A DNA stretch of 64,000 nucleotides from an uncultured Candidatus Saccharibacteria bacterium (GCA_964538855.1 CAZIEY010000002.1:65709-129708), one strand, 5' to 3'; shown: positions 6,328 to 60,493, counted from the first letter of the stretch. Numbers and translations: made by a program. The notes: generated by a model from the sequence alone, not told the origin.

Positions 6328-6948
6328 ATGTTTAATCACGACGACTCAAAGGATTTTTATGCAAACATCTCGTACTTCCTTGCGGTTACTATAGGGGTTT
6401 TTGCCGTTACTTTTGGGACCTTGTATTATTTGAATTTGGTTCCTGGTTCGCTTCGACAAGCGGCCACCTTGCCGGAAGAAGAAATAGAAGATGTCGAGGA
6501 CGCTCCAATCAGTGCTACTTTGCCGGATCGAATTACCATTCCAAAAATAGGACTTGATGCAATTGTTGGGCATGCGCCTTCACAGGACATTGCGACACTC
6601 AATAGATATGTTGCAGCTGGCGCAGTGTATTATCCTGGGTCTGGAACAATAGAGCAGGGGAATATGTTCGTATTTGGCCACAGCTCTGATTTGTATCGCT
6701 CGGTGCAAAATCCTGCCGACAAGGTTTTTAATAATTTGACCAAGCTTTCTGCTGGCGATGAAATCACTGTGACAGGGGATGGTCAACGATATGTGTATGT
6801 TGTTACTTCCGTTCGTGCCGCCAAGGAGGACACAGAATTGGTGACTTTTGATACTTCTAAGCGTCGAATTACGCTTTCTACTTGTAATACTTTTGGCGAG
6901 AAACAGGATCGTACTGTGGTTGAAGCCGAATTTAGCTATAGTTTATAA
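6328..6948 (+). CDS. Sortase-family transpeptidase
   Basis: N-terminal TM anchor, beta-barrel motifs PDRITIPKIGLDAIV and FVFGHSS, the active-site TLSTC motif (ITLSTCNTF), and a conserved downstream Arg. Confidence 0.8.
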   Translation: MFNHDDSKDFYANISYFLAVTIGVFAVTFGTLYYLNLVPGSLRQAATLPEEEIEDVEDAPISATLPDRITIPKIGLDAIVGHAPSQDIATLNRYVAAGAVYYPGSGTIEQGNMFVFGHSSDLYRSVQNPADKVFNNLTKLSAGDEITVTGDGQRYVYVVTSVRAAKEDTELVTFDTSKRRITLSTCNTFGEKQDRTVVEAEFSYSL

Positions 6949-17078: not shown

Positions 17079-17768
17079 ATGGATTTTAAAATTTTAGAGA
17101 AAAAAATCGGCATTGATTTCAAGGATAAAAATTTATTGAAACAAGCTTTTACACATCGCTCTTACCTAAATGAAAATCGTAAATTAGAAATGGGGCATAA
17201 TGAACGCCTCGAATTTTTGGGTGATGCGGTGCTCGAACTCGTGACAACTGATTTTTTGTATCATAAATACCCAAAGAAAGACGAAGGGGATTTAACTTCT
17301 CTTAGATCAGCACTAGTGAACACTATTACTATTTCAGAAACAGCGTCGGAACTTGGTTTCAATGAATACTTGTTAATGTCTCGAGGGGAAGCCAAAGACA
17401 CAGGTCGCGCGCGTCAATATATTTTAGCAAACACATTTGAATCGGTAATTGGTTCAATTTATCTTGATGGTGGATATGCCGAGGCTTTAAAATTCATTTC
17501 TACTTTTCTATTACCAAAACTAGATGAAATCGTCGAAAAGGGTTTGTGGTTGGATGCGAAAAGTAAGTTACAAGAAATTTCTCAAGATAAGTTTTCGATG
17601 ACACCCCTATACGAAACGATTAAACAAACAGGGCCAGATCACGACAAGACATTTACTGTTGTTGTGACATATGGCAAGGGTAAAAAAGCCGAAGGTGACG
17701 GAAAATCAAAACAAGAGGCCGAACAAGATGCGGCGCGCAATGTCCTTGTCGACGAAAATTGGTTATAA
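17079..17768 (+). CDS. rnc: Ribonuclease III
   Basis: ERLEFLGDAVLELV signature and a C-terminal dsRBD. Confidence 0.9.
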   Translation: MDFKILEKKIGIDFKDKNLLKQAFTHRSYLNENRKLEMGHNERLEFLGDAVLELVTTDFLYHKYPKKDEGDLTSLRSALVNTITISETASELGFNEYLLMSRGEAKDTGRARQYILANTFESVIGSIYLDGGYAEALKFISTFLLPKLDEIVEKGLWLDAKSKLQEISQDKFSMTPLYETIKQTGPDHDKTFTVVVTYGKGKKAEGDGKSKQEAEQDAARNVLVDENWL

Positions 17769-17776
17769 TATACCTC

Positions 17777-19999
17777 ATGAATTTGAAGTCGCTAGAAATA
17801 AATGGTTTCAAGTCCTTTGCGAAAAAGGCGATTTTGAATTTTAACGCGCCAATTTCTTCGATTGTGGGACCGAATGGTTCTGGAAAATCTAACGTGGCAG
17901 AAGCGTTTCGATTTGCACTTGGTGAACAATCTTTTAAATCGATGCGTGGAAAACGTGGCGAAGATTTGATTTTTGGTGGAACGGCGACTGTACCAAAACA
18001 AAATCGGGCGAGCGTGAAAGTGACTTTGGACAACTCTGACAAAAAATTACCAATTGATTTCGAAGAAGTTATTTTAGAGCGCGTTGTACACCGTGACGGT
18101 GTGAATGAATATCTGATTAATGGATCACAGGTACGTTTGCGTGATATTAACGAATTGCTTGCTTCTGCAAATATTGGTTCGAGTGGTCATCACATCATTT
18201 CTCAGGGTGAGGCGGACCGGCTTTTGAATGCTTCAATCAAGGAGCGCAAGCAGACGTTAGAAGAAGCACTCGGCTTACGAATTCACCAATACAAAAAAAT
18301 TGAGAGTCAAAAGAAGTTACAGAAAACTCGTGAAAATATCGAGAAGGTCGAATCGTTACGTCGCGAGATTATTCCGCATTTGAAATTTTTGAAAAAGCAG
18401 GTGGAAAAAATTGAGGAAGGTAAAAAGCTCAAAGAAAGTTTGAAGGCGGCGTATCAGACGTATTTGAAAATCGAATCACTCTATTTGCAGGCTGAAAAAA
18501 ATCGTATCGCAGTGGAAATCACTGTACCAAAAGATCGTCTCAAAGAAATTGAGCGTGATATTCAAAAATATGAGGTGGAAACTAAACAGGCAATAAATAA
18601 TGCCCTTGTCGAAGCCGTTAAGCAAGGTGAAACAAATGTGTCGGCTATCTTTGCTTTAAAAAGCGAATTACAGAGAAAAATCGGGCGTCTGGAGGGGCAA
18701 ATCAGTTCGCTTGAGAAATTAAGGGAAAAAACTGAAAGAAAAGAGCAGTTTAGTTCGCTTACACTTTCGTCTGAAGATGTGCACACGCTCAAAAAAGAGA
18801 GTGAATTGATGGAGGTGAATGTCGGCAATATCGAACTATTGCGCGAAGTCGTAACGCGCGTGATTGCATTTATAAAGAAAATTACTCAGTCAAACTATTC
18901 AAACGAAAAGGAGAATGTTTTTTACGACGAGGAAATTAAAAATTATCGCGCCGAATTGGCGGAGGCTGAAGATGAATTGGTTGTGGCTGAGCAAAAAGAA
19001 TTGCATGCTCAACAAACTCTCGCTGATGCGCGCGTCGCTTTGGAAGCTGATAAATCTCAGTCGTTTGAAGCGGAAAAGAAAATTATTGCTCTTATGTCGG
19101 AAAAAAATGATTTACAAAAAATTGTTTCAAATTTTGCAATTGCACTCGACATTTTGGAACGTGACGAGGCTGCGTATAAATTGGAATTGACCGAGGCAGC
19201 GGTGCTCGTAGGTCGTGACGTGCTCGAATTTGAATCAGTTGTGGTGCCGACTAATGAATCGCGTGATGCACAAATTTCTCGTCGCAAAGATTTGGAGCGA
19301 ACGAAAATCAAGGTTGAAGAATCTGGTATTGGATCAGGTGATGATACCATAAAAGAATTTAAAGAAGTTTCAGATCGCGATGTATTTTTGCTTGCCGAAA
19401 TTACTGATTTGGAAAATTCTGCACAATCGCTCGAAATGCTCATCGTGGATTTGGAAAATAAGATAGAAACTGAGTTCGAGTCGGGTCTCGAAAAAATCAA
19501 CACCCAATTTCAAAAGTTTTTTGAGCTTATGTTTGGTGGGGGAAGTGCTTCTCTCAAGAAAATCAAAATCGCAGCACGTAAACGCAAAGACACGGATTTG
19601 CTATCCGAAGACGACATGGAAAATCCAGAAGAGTTTGATGAAGGTGAGGAAGGTGTCGACATCAGTGTGAATTTACCTCGCAAAAAAGTGCGGGATTTGA
19701 TGATGTTATCGGGTGGGGAACGCGCGCTGACTTCGATTGCGCTTTTGTTTGCAATTTCTCAGGTCAATCCGCCACCATTTATTATTTTGGATGAAACTGA
19801 TGCCGCCCTCGACGAAGCAAATAGCCGAAAATACGGTGACATGATCGAAAGTCTTTCAAAATATTCTCAACTCATTCTAATTACTCATAATCGAGAAACG
19901 ATGTCGCGCGCAGGAATTTTGTATGGTGTGACTATGATGCATGGCGTATCCCAATTATTGTCGGTCGCGTTTGAGGAGGGTGTGAAGTTTGCGAAGTAG
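17777..19999 (+). CDS. smc: SMC-like chromosome segregation ATPase (short, ~740 aa)
   Basis: N-terminal LEINGFKSFA...IVGPNGSGKSNVAEAFRFALGEQS Walker A. C-terminal signature LSGGERALTSIALLFAI plus Walker B ILDETDAALD, with long coiled-coils. The start was moved to MNLKSL (17777) because the track start overlaps rnc. Confidence 0.8.
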   Translation: MNLKSLEINGFKSFAKKAILNFNAPISSIVGPNGSGKSNVAEAFRFALGEQSFKSMRGKRGEDLIFGGTATVPKQNRASVKVTLDNSDKKLPIDFEEVILERVVHRDGVNEYLINGSQVRLRDINELLASANIGSSGHHIISQGEADRLLNASIKERKQTLEEALGLRIHQYKKIESQKKLQKTRENIEKVESLRREIIPHLKFLKKQVEKIEEGKKLKESLKAAYQTYLKIESLYLQAEKNRIAVEITVPKDRLKEIERDIQKYEVETKQAINNALVEAVKQGETNVSAIFALKSELQRKIGRLEGQISSLEKLREKTERKEQFSSLTLSSEDVHTLKKESELMEVNVGNIELLREVVTRVIAFIKKITQSNYSNEKENVFYDEEIKNYRAELAEAEDELVVAEQKELHAQQTLADARVALEADKSQSFEAEKKIIALMSEKNDLQKIVSNFAIALDILERDEAAYKLELTEAAVLVGRDVLEFESVVVPTNESRDAQISRRKDLERTKIKVEESGIGSGDDTIKEFKEVSDRDVFLLAEITDLENSAQSLEMLIVDLENKIETEFESGLEKINTQFQKFFELMFGGGSASLKKIKIAARKRKDTDLLSEDDMENPEEFDEGEEGVDISVNLPRKKVRDLMMLSGGERALTSIALLFAISQVNPPPFIILDETDAALDEANSRKYGDMIESLSKYSQLILITHNRETMSRAGILYGVTMMHGVSQLLSVAFEEGVKFAK

Positions 20000-20000
20000 A

Positions 20001-20040
20001 TTGACTATATTATTGCTTTTTAAAAAAGTAGAGTTATAAT
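20001..20040 (+). promoter_or_regulatory. Candidate promoter for the GC-rich unit upstream of rnr
   Basis: ttgact 20001-20006 and ttgctt 20014-20019 as alternative -35 elements; tataat at 20035-20040. Spacing of 15 or 28 bp is suboptimal either way. Confidence 0.35.
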
Positions 20041-20091
20041 CGTATTTGGATGCACTGAAACCACAACGCAAGCACTGGAGGTAAAGACCAC

Positions 20092-20202
20092 ATGTCAAAG
20101 CGTCACGAAAAACAAAAAGCGAAGAAAAGGCACAGAGAGGCTAGCAATGGAGGTCCGTCTAGCAATTCGGGGACTCGGCAGAGCGGTAGAGGGGGTAAAT
20201 AG
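20092..20202 (+). CDS. Candidate small basic protein (36 aa) with strong SD; could instead lie within a structured RNA
   Basis: SD ggaggt is 9 nt upstream of the ATG. MSKRHEKQKAKKRHREASNGGPSSNSGTRQSGRGGK. Not in the ORF track because it is under 60 aa. Confidence 0.35.
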   Translation: MSKRHEKQKAKKRHREASNGGPSSNSGTRQSGRGGK

Positions 20203-20204
20203 CC

Positions 20205-20366
20205 ATGGCGCTTAAACCCCTGAAGTTCACATGCCGAAATCCTTGTTTCCGCTCGATTGACGGTACTGGCGGTGGCAAAGGAAAACGGGTGTTCGTTGCC
20301 CGTAAACTCTCGAAGGGTGCTTGCCCTTCCGCTTCTGGTATTCCCAATAAGGCGAGGTGGGAATAA
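20205..20366 (+). CDS. Candidate small protein (53 aa) with strong SD, immediately downstream
   Basis: SD gaggggg is 9 nt upstream of ATG 20205. MALKPLKFTCRNPCFRSIDGTGGGKGKRVFVARKLSKGACPSASGIPNKARWE has three Cys. A GC-rich segment inside an AT-rich genome. Confidence 0.35.
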   Translation: MALKPLKFTCRNPCFRSIDGTGGGKGKRVFVARKLSKGACPSASGIPNKARWE

Positions 20367-20390
20367 TCGTTTCTCTCCCTTGTCTCATTT

Positions 20391-20421
20391 GGCCCGCGCA
20401 AGCACGCGGGCCTTTCCTTTT
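20391..20421 (+). terminator. Rho-independent terminator
   Basis: ggcccgcgcaagcacgcgggcc is a perfect 8-bp stem, followed by tttccttttat. Confidence 0.7.
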
Positions 20422-20449
20422 ATCTACAAACTGCTACCATATATATCAA

Positions 20450-22381
20450 ATGCCAGATTCAACTTTCGAGGGGATTATTAATATAAGTACAAAGGCGGTT
20501 GGATACGTGCGAAATCCAAATGGGGGTGATGACGTGGTGATTGAGAGTGCTGATTTAAACAAAGCCCTCAACGGCGATAAAGTTCGCATTCAATTACAAG
20601 CTGCGACTGTCGATGGAAAGCCAAAAGGCGAAGTGACTGCGATTCTTTCTCGAGCTCGTGAACAATTCGTAGGTACTGTTTTGAAAAAAGAAACTGGTTG
20701 TGAAATTTTACCAGACAATCGTCGCATTCATGTGCGTTTTAATTTGCCGGAGGCCGATGCGGAAAAAACTGCTGCAAACGACAAGGTACTCATCAAATTG
20801 GGTGATTGGATTGATGAGAGTCAAAACCCAAGTGCAAAGCTTCTCAAAATTTTTGGTCAGAAAGGCAAACACGAAGTCGAAATGCAATCGATCATTTACG
20901 ACAAAGGTTTCGATTCAGAATTTCCAGCCGAAGTTGAGGCCGAAGCAAAACGCCTCAAGGCAGAATGGACTCCAATTCCTGCCGCAGAAATCGCAAAGCG
21001 TCGCGACATTCGCGAGAAAAACGTTTTTACAATTGACCCGTATGACGCAAAGGACTTTGACGACGCCCTCCACATTATTCCGCTTGAAAATGGGAATTTC
21101 GAAGTTGGTATTCACATCGCCGACGTTTCAAATTTCGTGACGCCGGGCAGCGCTTTGGACCGTGAAGCACATGAACGTGCGTTTTCTGTCTATCTCGTTG
21201 ACCGCACAATTCCGATGTTGCCAGAAATTTTGTCGAACGAACTTTGCTCGCTTAATCCGAACGAAGACAAAATGTCATTCAGTGCCATTTTTGAAATGAA
21301 CGCCAATGCCGAAGTCGTTTCTCGATGGTTTGGGAAAACAATTATGAATTCCAAAAAGCGCTTCACGTATGAAGAAGCTCAAGCGGTGCTCGACGCGGAA
21401 TCAGGACCTCTCGCTGCGGACTTGCTCAAAATGAATGAGCTCGCCAAAATCATGCAAAAGCGTCGAAAGGAAAGTGGCGCCATCGATTTTGAAAGTCAAG
21501 AAATTAAATTCGAGCTCGATAAAGATGGTCACCCAATTCGCATCATTAAAAAAGACCGTATCGACACAAACAAATTGGTCGAGGAATTTATGCTTCTTGC
21601 AAACAAAGAAGTAGCGAAATTTATTTACGATCAAAACAAAAAAGTCGGAGGCAACGACATTGGTCTTATGTATCGAATTCACGATGTCCCGAACCCTGAC
21701 AAAATTAAACAACTCGCATTGTTCCTCAAAGCGATGGGATATGTGTTGCCCATTAATGACGAAGGTAGTATCACAGCAAAAGACTTGAACGCACTTTTCG
21801 AAAAAGTGGCTGGCAAAGCAGAAGAAGCACTCGTGAAAACCGCGTCTGTGCGAACAATGAGCAAGGCGATTTATTCAACCGAAAATTCCGGTCACTTTGG
21901 TTTGGCGTTTGAATATTACACGCACTTTACATCGCCGATTCGGCGTTATCCGGACTTGCTTGTGCACCGCATTCTGCAAGCCTTTTTAACGAACAAAAAA
22001 TTGGAAGAAAGCGAATTGCAACATTTCCAAGAATCAGCTAGCCGTTCAAGTGAACGCGAAGTCAACGCTGCTGATGCAGAACGTGATTCTATCAAATATA
22101 AACAGGCCGAATACATGGCGGATCATATTGGCCAAGTTTATGAAGGTGTGATTTCCGGCGTGTCTGCATGGGGAATTTATGTTGTGGTTGATGAAACTCT
22201 CGCCGAAGGTATGGTGCACATCTCAAAACTCGGCAACGATTTCTTTAACTTGGATGAGAAAAATTACGCAATTGTCGGCGAGAAAACCAAAGTCCGCTTC
22301 AGTTTGGGCGATAAAATTAAGGTAAAAGTTGAAAAGACTGATTTGGACAAGAAAAACATAGATTTTTCTTTGGCGAAATAA
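20450..22381 (+). CDS. rnr: Ribonuclease R
   Basis: RNB catalytic domain (IDPYDAKDFDDALH), cold-shock/OB domains, and a C-terminal S1 domain. The start was moved to MPDSTFEG; the upstream part of the track ORF covers the GC-rich unit. Confidence 0.85.
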   Translation: MPDSTFEGIINISTKAVGYVRNPNGGDDVVIESADLNKALNGDKVRIQLQAATVDGKPKGEVTAILSRAREQFVGTVLKKETGCEILPDNRRIHVRFNLPEADAEKTAANDKVLIKLGDWIDESQNPSAKLLKIFGQKGKHEVEMQSIIYDKGFDSEFPAEVEAEAKRLKAEWTPIPAAEIAKRRDIREKNVFTIDPYDAKDFDDALHIIPLENGNFEVGIHIADVSNFVTPGSALDREAHERAFSVYLVDRTIPMLPEILSNELCSLNPNEDKMSFSAIFEMNANAEVVSRWFGKTIMNSKKRFTYEEAQAVLDAESGPLAADLLKMNELAKIMQKRRKESGAIDFESQEIKFELDKDGHPIRIIKKDRIDTNKLVEEFMLLANKEVAKFIYDQNKKVGGNDIGLMYRIHDVPNPDKIKQLALFLKAMGYVLPINDEGSITAKDLNALFEKVAGKAEEALVKTASVRTMSKAIYSTENSGHFGLAFEYYTHFTSPIRRYPDLLVHRILQAFLTNKKLEESELQHFQESASRSSEREVNAADAERDSIKYKQAEYMADHIGQVYEGVISGVSAWGIYVVVDETLAEGMVHISKLGNDFFNLDEKNYAIVGEKTKVRFSLGDKIKVKVEKTDLDKKNIDFSLAK

Positions 22382-22461: not shown

Positions 22462-22959
22462 TCACCAGATGTCCGGACCTTCTTGGATGACCTCGATGGT
22501 GCCGGGTTGGTAACCCTCCTCTCCGGATCGTCCTGCATTCAGCAGACGTTGGAGTTCTTGAGCGTTACTGGTTGTAATCGTTATTGTGACGAACCCATCA
22601 GCCGGGAAGTGTTTCCGAATCACACGAATGTACAGCTGCCGCCTGACTCCACCTGCGTCCAGCATTTCTTTGAACAGGTAACGGACCTTATCGTTGTGAC
22701 ACATGAGGTAATGAAGGTCGCGCCAGCAAGCTTCACGAATAACCTGACGTGCAGCGTCCATATTTTCGTACATGGCGCGAAAAGCTTCCAGTGTAACCTC
22801 ATGAAAATCATGAGTAGGCAAGGAGATCGTGCCAGCCTTAGCCGTCACCAACAAATCACGGCACTTTCTTGCCTGCGTAATATCAAACTTCTCGCGACCC
22901 CACATGAGGTCGTACAGTCCTTGGTAAAACGCAAAGACCTGCTCCATAGGCTTTTTCAT
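22462..22959 (-). CDS. Hypothetical protein; GC-rich gene
   Basis: 165-aa ORF with no recognisable motif and markedly higher G+C than its neighbours. Convergent with rnr, with a palindromic hairpin (agaaagagggcgcctctttct) between them. Confidence 0.5.
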   Translation of the reverse strand: MKKPMEQVFAFYQGLYDLMWGREKFDITQARKCRDLLVTAKAGTISLPTHDFHEVTLEAFRAMYENMDAARQVIREACWRDLHYLMCHNDKVRYLFKEMLDAGGVRRQLYIRVIRKHFPADGFVTITITTSNAQELQRLLNAGRSGEEGYQPGTIEVIQEGPDIW

Positions 22960-60251: not shown

Positions 60252-60335
60252 GCGCGGGTGGCGAAATTGGTAGACGCACTACCTTGAGGTGGTAACGCTC
60301 GCAAGGGCATGGAGGTTCGAGTCCTCTCTCGCGCA
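60252..60335 (+). tRNA. tRNA-Leu (anticodon GAG), type II; CCA not encoded
   Basis: GCGCGGG-TG-GCGAAATTGGTAGACGC-A-CTACC-TTGAGGT-GGTAA-[long variable arm]-GGAGG-TTCGAGT-CCTCT-CTCGCGC-A. Extended -10 tgctatact just upstream. Confidence 0.85.
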
Positions 60336-60493
60336 CATCAATGTGTCTGATTGACATATTACCTATAAATTGTGTAGTATTAGCCACGGCGTTATTGAAC
60401 CTTAACCCGAGCTGTCTTCGGACATCTCACACTGGCTTAATCAACCCGTGTCATTCAAAATCACCGATTGATTATCGGTTGTAGGAGAAGCAA

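Follow-up and report, generated by a model that had tools for sequence, protein, structure and literature searches.

Between the smc and rnr genes of an uncultured Candidatus Saccharibacteria bacterium lies a G+C-rich spacer that contains a candidate gene for a very short, basic protein, and the contents of this spacer and its fate among related strains are the subject of this article. The DNA analyzed, referred to here as the window, is a stretch of 64,000 nucleotides (GCA_964538855.1, CAZIEY010000002.1:65709-129708) with an overall G+C content of 43%. On its + strand, smc encodes a SMC_N/AAA_23-family ATPase of ~740 aa (17759-19999; located from the list of open reading frames [ORFs] and its translation, with Pfam labels taken from orthologues), and rnr encodes RNase R (20450-22381; identified through RNase R homologues), whose best homologues in the protein collection carry the name Candidatus Paceibacterota (Parcubacteria, candidate phyla radiation [CPR]). 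The two genes are separated by 450 nt, within which the variable spacer occupies 431 nt and ends at 20430. The junction was compared in contigs of relatives labeled L081-L083, L085, L087, and L089-L095. Those with RNase R at least 90% identical (L081/82, L090/91, L092, L093, L094, and L095) form a close set with six distinct spacers, and L089, being 100% identical to the window over 6.5 kb, is therefore the same strain as the window. The contigs L089 and L093 belong to the sequencing runs SRR13208889 and SRR26425196, respectively.

Organization of the Spacer

The left edge of the spacer is the stop codon of smc, homology to all close strains ending at 19998, and on the right homology among these strains resumes exactly at 20431, 19 nt before the rnr ATG. 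As a preliminary description of this DNA had noted, the segment is richer in G+C than its surroundings (53% at 20100-20399 vs. 41-44% in the flanks), and its G+C content is the highest among the window's spacers longer than 150 nt. A promoter-like site, recognized by eye and recurring in other strains, lies at its 5' end (20013-20040, + strand) and consists of TTGCTT at 20013-20018, a 16-nt spacer, and TATAAT at 20035-20040. This candidate, also put forward earlier, was missed by a consensus scan because its -35 hexamer matches at only three of six positions, but the same arrangement is found in four other strains. It is followed by a presumed 5' untranslated region (UTR) of ~45 nt (20047-20091, + strand), assigned by reading the sequence and comparing strains, which carries the motif CACAACGCA at 20062-20070, common to the window, L081, and L095, and a Shine-Dalgarno sequence (SD1, GGAGGT, 20077-20082) 9 nt ahead of the first ATG.

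ORF1 (20092-20202, + strand) encodes a very basic peptide of 36 aa, MSKRHEKQKAKKRHREASNGGPSSNSGTRQSGRGGK, with a net charge of ~+9; its orthologue in L093 and the frame-specific conservation described below make it the best-supported functional part of the spacer. ORF2 (20205-20366, + strand), of 53 aa with three Cys, begins 2 nt past the ORF1 stop, and a second Shine-Dalgarno sequence (SD2, AGGGGGT, 20190-20196) lies 8 nt ahead of its ATG; this portion (20190-20366), delimited by reading the sequence, is treated here as a drifting 3' region. The preliminary description had both ORFs correctly, together with the spacing of SD1, but it also gave SD2 a spacing of 9 nt and let the ORF1 stop overlap it, whereas SD2 lies within the last codons of ORF1 and the stop (20200-20202) falls between SD2 and the second ATG. 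The perfect 8-bp stem that it described at the 3' end is confirmed: a terminator scan places an intrinsic terminator at 20391-20422 (+ strand), in which GGCCCGCG and CGCGGGCC form a stem with G-C at all eight pairs (20391-20412) around a 6-nt loop, followed by the T-rich tail TTTCCTTTTA; a hairpin occupies the counterpart position in L093.

In 3000 dinucleotide-preserving shuffles of the spacer body, a single SD-led ATG ORF of 36 aa or more arose in 2% and two in none; the pair of SD-led ORFs exceeds what chance provides at this composition. ORF length alone carries little weight here because the opposite strand of the same segment holds ORFs of 80 and 53 aa, and an ATG ORF of at least 53 aa arises in 14.5% of the 3000 shuffles. 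Self-similarity comparison within the window revealed neither terminal inverted or direct repeats nor a second copy, the spacer being single-copy, and a blastn search of phages and plasmids in "distant" mode gave no match; integrase, repeat, or mobile-element signatures were found neither in that search nor in the self-similarity scans.

An Orthologous Spacer and Conservation of the ORF1 Frame

The spacers of the window and L093 score 86 in global alignment, vs. 28.7 ± 8.1 for shuffles, and are therefore orthologous. That of L093 has a promoter-like site (TTGCGC-17-TATTTT), then GAGGAGGT and a 43-aa ORF (2606-2737, P0128) that is the counterpart of ORF1, then AAGGAG and a second ORF of 44 aa (2753-2887), and finally a hairpin of 12 G+C-rich pairs with a T-run (2905-2932), which lies at the same place as the window's terminator with different stem bases, the pairing having been kept through changes on both sides (alignment columns 367-388). 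Identity between the two spacers is ~50-57%, with many indels, and is close to that at the fourfold-degenerate sites of the flanking smc and rnr genes (60-62%), so that most of the element drifts at approximately the neutral rate.

ORF1 departs from this background at the level of the encoded peptide. When both spacers were translated in six frames and all frame pairs scored, the ORF1/ORF1 pair reached 56 and the other 35 pairs at most 24. The underlying alignment (MSKRHEKQKAKKRHRE--ASNGGP with MGNRHEQQQARRARKENRRCNGGP) compares with 26.6 ± 5.2 for composition-preserving shuffles, none of 2000 of which reached 56. Codon positions 1, 2, and 3 are identical in 14, 15, and 8 of 22 codons, respectively (Fisher p = 0.035), and the differences include exchanges between Lys and Arg, several of which alter all three bases of the codon. 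The start is marked by an SD at functional spacing, with SD and ATG aligned in five strains. On the strength of its frame-specific conservation, ORF1 behaves like a gene over at least its first 22-24 codons. Gene callers had called the L093 counterpart, and the product of the window's ORF1 was not found, exactly or in similar form, in protein collections. AlphaFold2, given the two-sequence alignment, places a helix at residues 3-18 and leaves the remainder unstructured (mean pLDDT 65).

A number of observations weigh against regarding ORF1 as a gene. The codon-usage score of ORF1 (-0.09 per codon), although the highest of the three frames, falls between that of real genes (0.37 ± 0.16, 5th percentile 0.07) and that of off-frame sequence (-0.56 ± 0.32, 95th percentile -0.07). 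The coding evidence is limited to 22-24 aligned codons because there is a single independent orthologue (L089 being the same strain), and the Fisher test over codon positions reaches only 0.035. At the DNA level, identity in the N-terminal block of ORF1 is ~55%, which is not above the neutral expectation set by the fourfold sites, and the C-terminal tail is out of register with L093, the distance from the GGP codons to the aligned TAA differing by 2 nt. A six-frame chimeric query found no ORF1 homologue among 5.8 billion clustered proteins at E ≤ 10; a two-peptide profile recovered the L093 peptide only, both among these proteins and in an exhaustive search, with no word filter, of 1.84 billion representatives; and no match came from Pfam, NCBIfam, PHROGs, or PDB sequences. 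ORF1 and the longer ORFs that begin at the same place in L081 and L095 (63 aa) and L092 (130 aa) appear by eye to have MxxR...GGP in common, a resemblance that is not significant. ORF1 likewise had no match to the family profiles of bL34, bL36, bTHX, and SRA (Pfam, NCBIfam, and PDB, at E ≤ 1 to 10), and ORF1 patterns were not found in Joint Genome Institute (JGI) metagenomes or viral contigs.

A Gene Start Shared by Five Strains

The upstream part of the unit extends to more strains than the peptide does. Directly after the smc stop, the arrangement TTGnnn-16/17-TAnnnT is present in L093, L081, L095, and L092, and in these four strains and the window an SD and an ATG follow 85-94 nt past the smc stop, with invariant ATG columns; in L081, L095, and L092 the leader measures roughly 40-45 nt. 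The segments comprising promoter and 5' UTR exceed shuffles in similarity in nine of ten strain pairs (z 2.3-5.5). L095, the only one of L081, L095, and L092 with a comparable smc, has a fourfold-site identity of 44% to the window in that gene, close to saturation. The ORFs that follow the shared start are of 63 aa in L081 and L095, with RGGPRHRR in common and synonymous differences, and of 130 aa in L092. From this it might be conjectured that the smc-rnr junction of the clade is a cradle of fast-turnover, SD-dependent genes for small basic peptides (36, 43, 63, and 130 aa) under a shared promoter and leader, ORF1 then being a young and possibly de novo gene whose basic peptide would act on RNA, on ribosomes, or on the host cell of the organism; this broader proposal is speculative and on balance rather improbable.

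Hypervariability of the smc-rnr Junction

In L085 and L087 (RNase R 70-73% identical), smc and rnr are only 52-65 nt apart with no comparable element, and in L083 (RNase R 75% identical) a His_Phos_1 gene lies between them. The spacers of the close set measure 431-1560 nt and have 47-50% G+C, and BLAST detected no similarity among them or to the spacer of the window. A scan of the genome collection anchored on RNase R returned distant relatives only (at most 51% identity, with one partial match at 67%) and no similar DNA, and the spacer was matched by neither nhmmer nor blastn in 80 RNase R-anchored loci, mostly from Bacteroidota and distant Patescibacteria; the closer relatives came from the protein collection and their contigs. 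The flanking genes differ in their affinities. The SMC protein of the window is 96% identical in amino acids to that of L093 and 79% to those of L090, L094, and L095 (fourfold sites 37-44%), and its RNase R is 95-97% identical to those of all four strains (fourfold sites 49-62%). This mosaic ancestry suggests that a recombination breakpoint lies in the smc-rnr spacer.

Two possible origins of the spacer were rejected. As a decayed form of the L083 His_Phos_1 gene or of the inserts in L081 it found no match by tblastx, and as a remnant of a minus-strand gene of 96-100 aa known from L081 and L090 it found none in a hidden Markov model (HMM) search of its six-frame translations. The latter gene (L081 2606-2896 and L090 2586-2888, both on the - strand) encodes a helical protein common to the two strains and is divergent from rnr; the pair has a Smith-Waterman score of 83, vs. 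27 ± 5 for shuffles, and BLASTP reported no alignment. The ORF of 95 aa that L094 has in this position is not related to it. Other small cassettes also occupy the spacer position in L081 (1422-2982) and L095 (2237-2982), carrying the 63-aa Arg/Pro-rich ORF (…RGGPRHRR…RRPR…) with its SD and a terminator, as well as a second strong promoter (TTGACAAA…) with GGAAGGAGGTGA before a tiny ORF that differs in length between the two strains (19 aa vs. 12 aa).

Predicted Leaderless Initiation and the Independence of rnr

Of the window's 51 long ORFs, only 5 have an SD-like core of four bases upstream, and a TAnnnT box ends 3-13 nt before the ATG in 17 of 29 genes that start with ATG, often accompanied by TGn or by TTG 16-18 nt upstream (examples are at 6328, 10996(-), 14323, 20450, 39701(-), 52283, 57554, and 59693(-)). 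On these two counts, the genome appears to use mostly leaderless mRNAs and seldom SDs; a literature search on SD and leaderless usage in Patescibacteria returned nothing directly relevant. The rnr core promoter and start (20431-20452, + strand) are near-identical in the close strains. The extended -10 element, TGcTACCAT (TG at 20432-20433, TACCAT at 20435-20440), ends 9 nt before the ATG at 20450, and there is no SD. CTGCTACCATATATATCAAATG, which spans this element and the leaderless ATG, is common to all close strains, with two small differences in L093. The possession by rnr of its own promoter and a leaderless start therefore leaves no room for the upstream element to act as a leader or attenuator.

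Interpretation and Alternative Explanations

The spacer is best interpreted as an orphan, SD-led gene for a small basic peptide (ORF1) with a drifting 3' region, together forming one self-contained, lineage-specific unit, and we hold this interpretation with about even confidence. A sigma-70-like promoter (TTGCTT-16-TATAAT) would start an RNA of ~375 nt near 20047, and the strong SD (GGAGGT) in its 45-nt leader would drive translation of ORF1. The 36-aa peptide, with a charge of ~+9, is predicted to consist of a basic N-terminal helix and a disordered Gly/Ser-rich tail and, to judge from its composition, would most likely bind nucleic acid or the ribosome electrostatically. The remaining ~190 nt would constitute a 3' region drifting near the neutral rate, in which ORF2 may be translated by coupling while not being kept as a protein. 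The G+C-rich terminator would end both the small unit and any read-through from smc and so shield rnr, which would be transcribed separately, as a leaderless mRNA, from its conserved extended -10 promoter.

Explanations in which the RNA itself is the product, or in which the segment serves rnr, can be considered in light of searches for known families. Both the ~375-nt size and the G+C content would fit a divergent housekeeping RNA, such as transfer-messenger RNA (tmRNA), RNase P RNA, 6S RNA, or signal recognition particle (SRP) RNA, and in other bacteria rnr often lies near smpB and ssrA. However, a cmscan search of the whole window with all 4227 Rfam families returned three tRNAs only at the gathering score; within 19950-20500 (551 nt), searched to E ≤ 10, there were only weak matches on the terminator hairpin, far below the gathering score, and none to tmRNA, RNase P, 6S, SRP, riboswitch, T-box, or leader families. 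ARAGORN likewise found three tRNAs and no tmRNA in the window, and sister strains whose RNase R is 97% identical lack the element, an absence not expected of an essential RNA gene. The preliminary description, which had seen no tmRNA or RNase P features and proposed an Rfam/Infernal scan, is upheld here in that respect. Two motifs in the spacer that by eye resembled the conserved regions (CR) of RNase P, GGAGGUAAAGACC and CGUAAACUC, were rejected because neither a match to the covariance models nor a partner strand for P4 was found. The element is not tmRNA, RNase P RNA, 6S RNA, or SRP RNA, and the chance of a housekeeping RNA is negligible, this explanation being effectively excluded. A small RNA of ~375 nt, whether regulatory, structured, or dual-function, that belongs to a class outside Rfam and carries its ORFs incidentally would account for the promoter-like site, the terminator, and a G+C content above that of the genome. 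In its favor, the L093 counterpart folds better than its own shuffles (z = -3.8), and patches of DNA similarity outside ORF1 ignore the reading frames (e.g., AGTTCACATG..AAATCC). Against it, 20040-20425 of the window folds no more stably than shuffles (minimum free energy z = -0.72 on the + strand and -0.57 on the opposite strand), folding the alignment with L093 gives a weak consensus (-35.9 kcal/mol over 398 columns) in which the terminator is the sole solid helix, and Rfam searches of six related loci (gathering score) and of the L081 spacer (E ≤ 1) returned nothing beyond terminator look-alikes. The segment also diverges at a near-neutral rate, and its best-conserved block acts like coding sequence; an RNA of this kind is accordingly considered quite unlikely. 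A cis-acting leader or attenuator that controls rnr through terminator read-through would be consistent with a terminator on the same strand 30 nt upstream of the rnr ATG. The extended -10 and leaderless ATG of rnr are, however, near-identical whatever lies upstream, and a read-through transcript would be expected to translate rnr poorly, since no SD precedes it. Moreover, the 70-73% relatives have no element, the element of the window recurs in one relative only, the others having none or a different one, and no riboswitch, T-box, or leader family matches. Such a role is very unlikely and, with rnr apparently independent, effectively excluded.

The remaining explanations differ over how much of the spacer is coding. 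In one, ORF1 and ORF2 form a bicistronic, translationally coupled operon in which both encode real small basic proteins (36 and 53 aa), as would be suggested by the near-consensus SD 8 nt before the ORF2 ATG, the start 2 nt past the ORF1 stop, the absence of two SD-led ORFs of at least 36 aa from all 3000 shuffles, and the presence in L093 of a second SD-led ORF (AAGGAG, 44 aa) ahead of the terminator. The ORF2 frame also has the highest codon-usage score of the three (+0.04 per codon, between real genes and off-frame sequence), and a C-terminal PSASG/PSACG is seen by eye, in frame and with synonymous differences, in both strains. The comparison with L093 nevertheless speaks against a second protein: the ORF2/ORF2 frame pair scores 24, vs. 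up to 30 for other pairs, no frame-specific amino acid conservation is found (similarity p = 0.28), and the start of the second L093 ORF aligns to an ATG at 20231 in the window, which lies in another frame than ORF2 and starts an ORF of just nine codons. The ORF2 region diverges near the neutral rate, the opposite strand offers equally long ORFs, and database, viral-contig, and metagenome searches yielded no homologue apart from a single metagenome match (L096) that was judged to be due to chance. There the search required an identical seed of 8 aa, which falls in an ORF of 69 aa; this is one of several short ORFs that overlap one another on an unrelated high-GC contig, adjoining a large dehydratase/epimerase-like ORF. 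ORF2 thus does not behave like a conserved gene, and we consider a two-protein operon rather unlikely. At the other extreme, the spacer could be essentially without function: foreign or leftover DNA that drifts neutrally at a hotspot of recombination, with ORFs and SDs that are by-products of G-rich composition and with selection on the terminator only, which serves smc. This would be in keeping with relatives at 70-75% RNase R identity that do without the element (having a 52-65-nt spacer or the His_Phos_1 gene), with spacers unrelated in sequence among distinct close strains, with a window-L093 identity of ~50-57% that is not above the 60-62% of fourfold sites, with the switch of smc type at the junction (96% identity to L093 and 79% to others, vs. 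95-97% to all for rnr), and with ORFs that are orphans. It does not account for amino acid conservation specific to the ORF1 frame, for the constant offset at which five strains carry the promoter, SD, and ATG in spite of 44% fourfold identity in smc (L095), or for two SD-led ORFs that never occurred together in shuffles; in addition, small streamlined genomes are not expected to hold 400 nt of useless spacer for long. Non-functional DNA is therefore regarded as unlikely.

An orphan gene for the ORF1 peptide, followed by a drifting 3' region, is thus the interpretation retained. Of the ideas in the preliminary description, the pair of small basic proteins survives in its first member, the ORF1 frame being kept in the L093 orthologue and that of ORF2 not, which is also the outcome of the check for coding conservation in related loci that it had proposed. 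A structured or dual-function RNA is disfavored by Rfam matches confined to terminator look-alikes, by the folding result (z = -0.72), and by near-neutral drift, and a leader regulating rnr by the conserved -10 and leaderless ATG of that gene and by the 70-73% relatives that have no element. What has been demonstrated comprises the anatomy of the spacer, its lack of membership in a known RNA family, its orthology with the L093 spacer, the conservation of the ORF1 frame, and the independence of rnr. The finding is an ordinary one, namely a likely orphan gene for a small protein, not previously annotated, within a variable spacer, and nothing points to a new mechanism.

Other Features of the Window

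A G+C-rich (50-54%) gene of ~160 aa (22462-22959, - strand) lies directly downstream of and convergent with rnr. It has counterparts in L081 (5014-5505), L090 (5024-5500), L092 (5020-5502), and L093 (5014-5490) and no match in Pfam, NCBIfam, or PHROGs. Among strains whose RNase R proteins are 95-97% identical, it is only 27-62% identical, and in the 70-73% relatives it is absent and rpsP directly follows rnr. With this gene on one side and the spacer on the other, rnr thus stands between two stretches of sequence that evolve rapidly and are specific to the lineage. As for the gene upstream of the spacer, the Pfam matches of its orthologues are SMC_N, AAA_23, AAA_15, and AAA_21; a canonical bacterial SMC protein has ~1100-1200 aa, and since the product in the window, at ~740 aa, is far shorter, the smc annotation may deserve a check. 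Elsewhere, ARAGORN reported at 60252-60336 (+ strand) a tRNA to which it assigned no identity and an "anticodon" of only two bases; the Rfam tRNA model recognizes this tRNA with 46 bits. By eye, it resembles a class II tRNA, having a long variable arm and the anticodon loop TTGAGGT, and is probably a tRNA-Leu(GAG) in which the pair closing the anticodon stem is mismatched.

Implications and Comparison with Known Systems

In terms of annotation, neither a housekeeping RNA (tmRNA, RNase P RNA, or any other) nor an rnr leader should be entered for the segment, and ORF2 should not be entered as a conserved protein; one likely small-protein gene, previously unannotated, is added. The locus would provide a clean case of an orphan gene that depends on an SD, situated where two core genes meet at a hypervariable junction, in an ultra-small CPR genome whose mRNAs are mostly leaderless, and, if the ORF1 peptide is functional, a tractable case of rapid small-gene turnover in Patescibacteria.

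Small basic peptides such as the stationary-phase ribosome-associated protein SRA/RpsV and ribosomal proteins of the bTHX type offer the nearest comparison for ORF1. Like their genes, ORF1 is very short (36 aa), its product is strongly basic and, by prediction, largely disordered, and it stands by itself as a unit, equipped with a promoter, SD, and terminator of its own; unlike them, it has no family match and is known from two lineages only, and the link to the ribosome is one that its composition may suggest. The element resembles tmRNA (ssrA) in adjoining rnr and in approximate size but differs from it in having neither a tRNA-like domain nor a model match and in not being conserved in sister strains. 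Compared with hypervariable intergenic hotspots and accessory islets, the spacer is tiny (0.4-1.6 kb) and has no integrase, repeat, or mobile signature that could be found, and the window and L093 spacers differ by drift rather than by replacement. It is nonetheless like such islets in having sharp, fixed edges (the smc stop and a point 19 nt before the rnr ATG), in its atypical G+C content, in a content that varies between close strains, and in the shift of phylogenetic signal that occurs at the junction.

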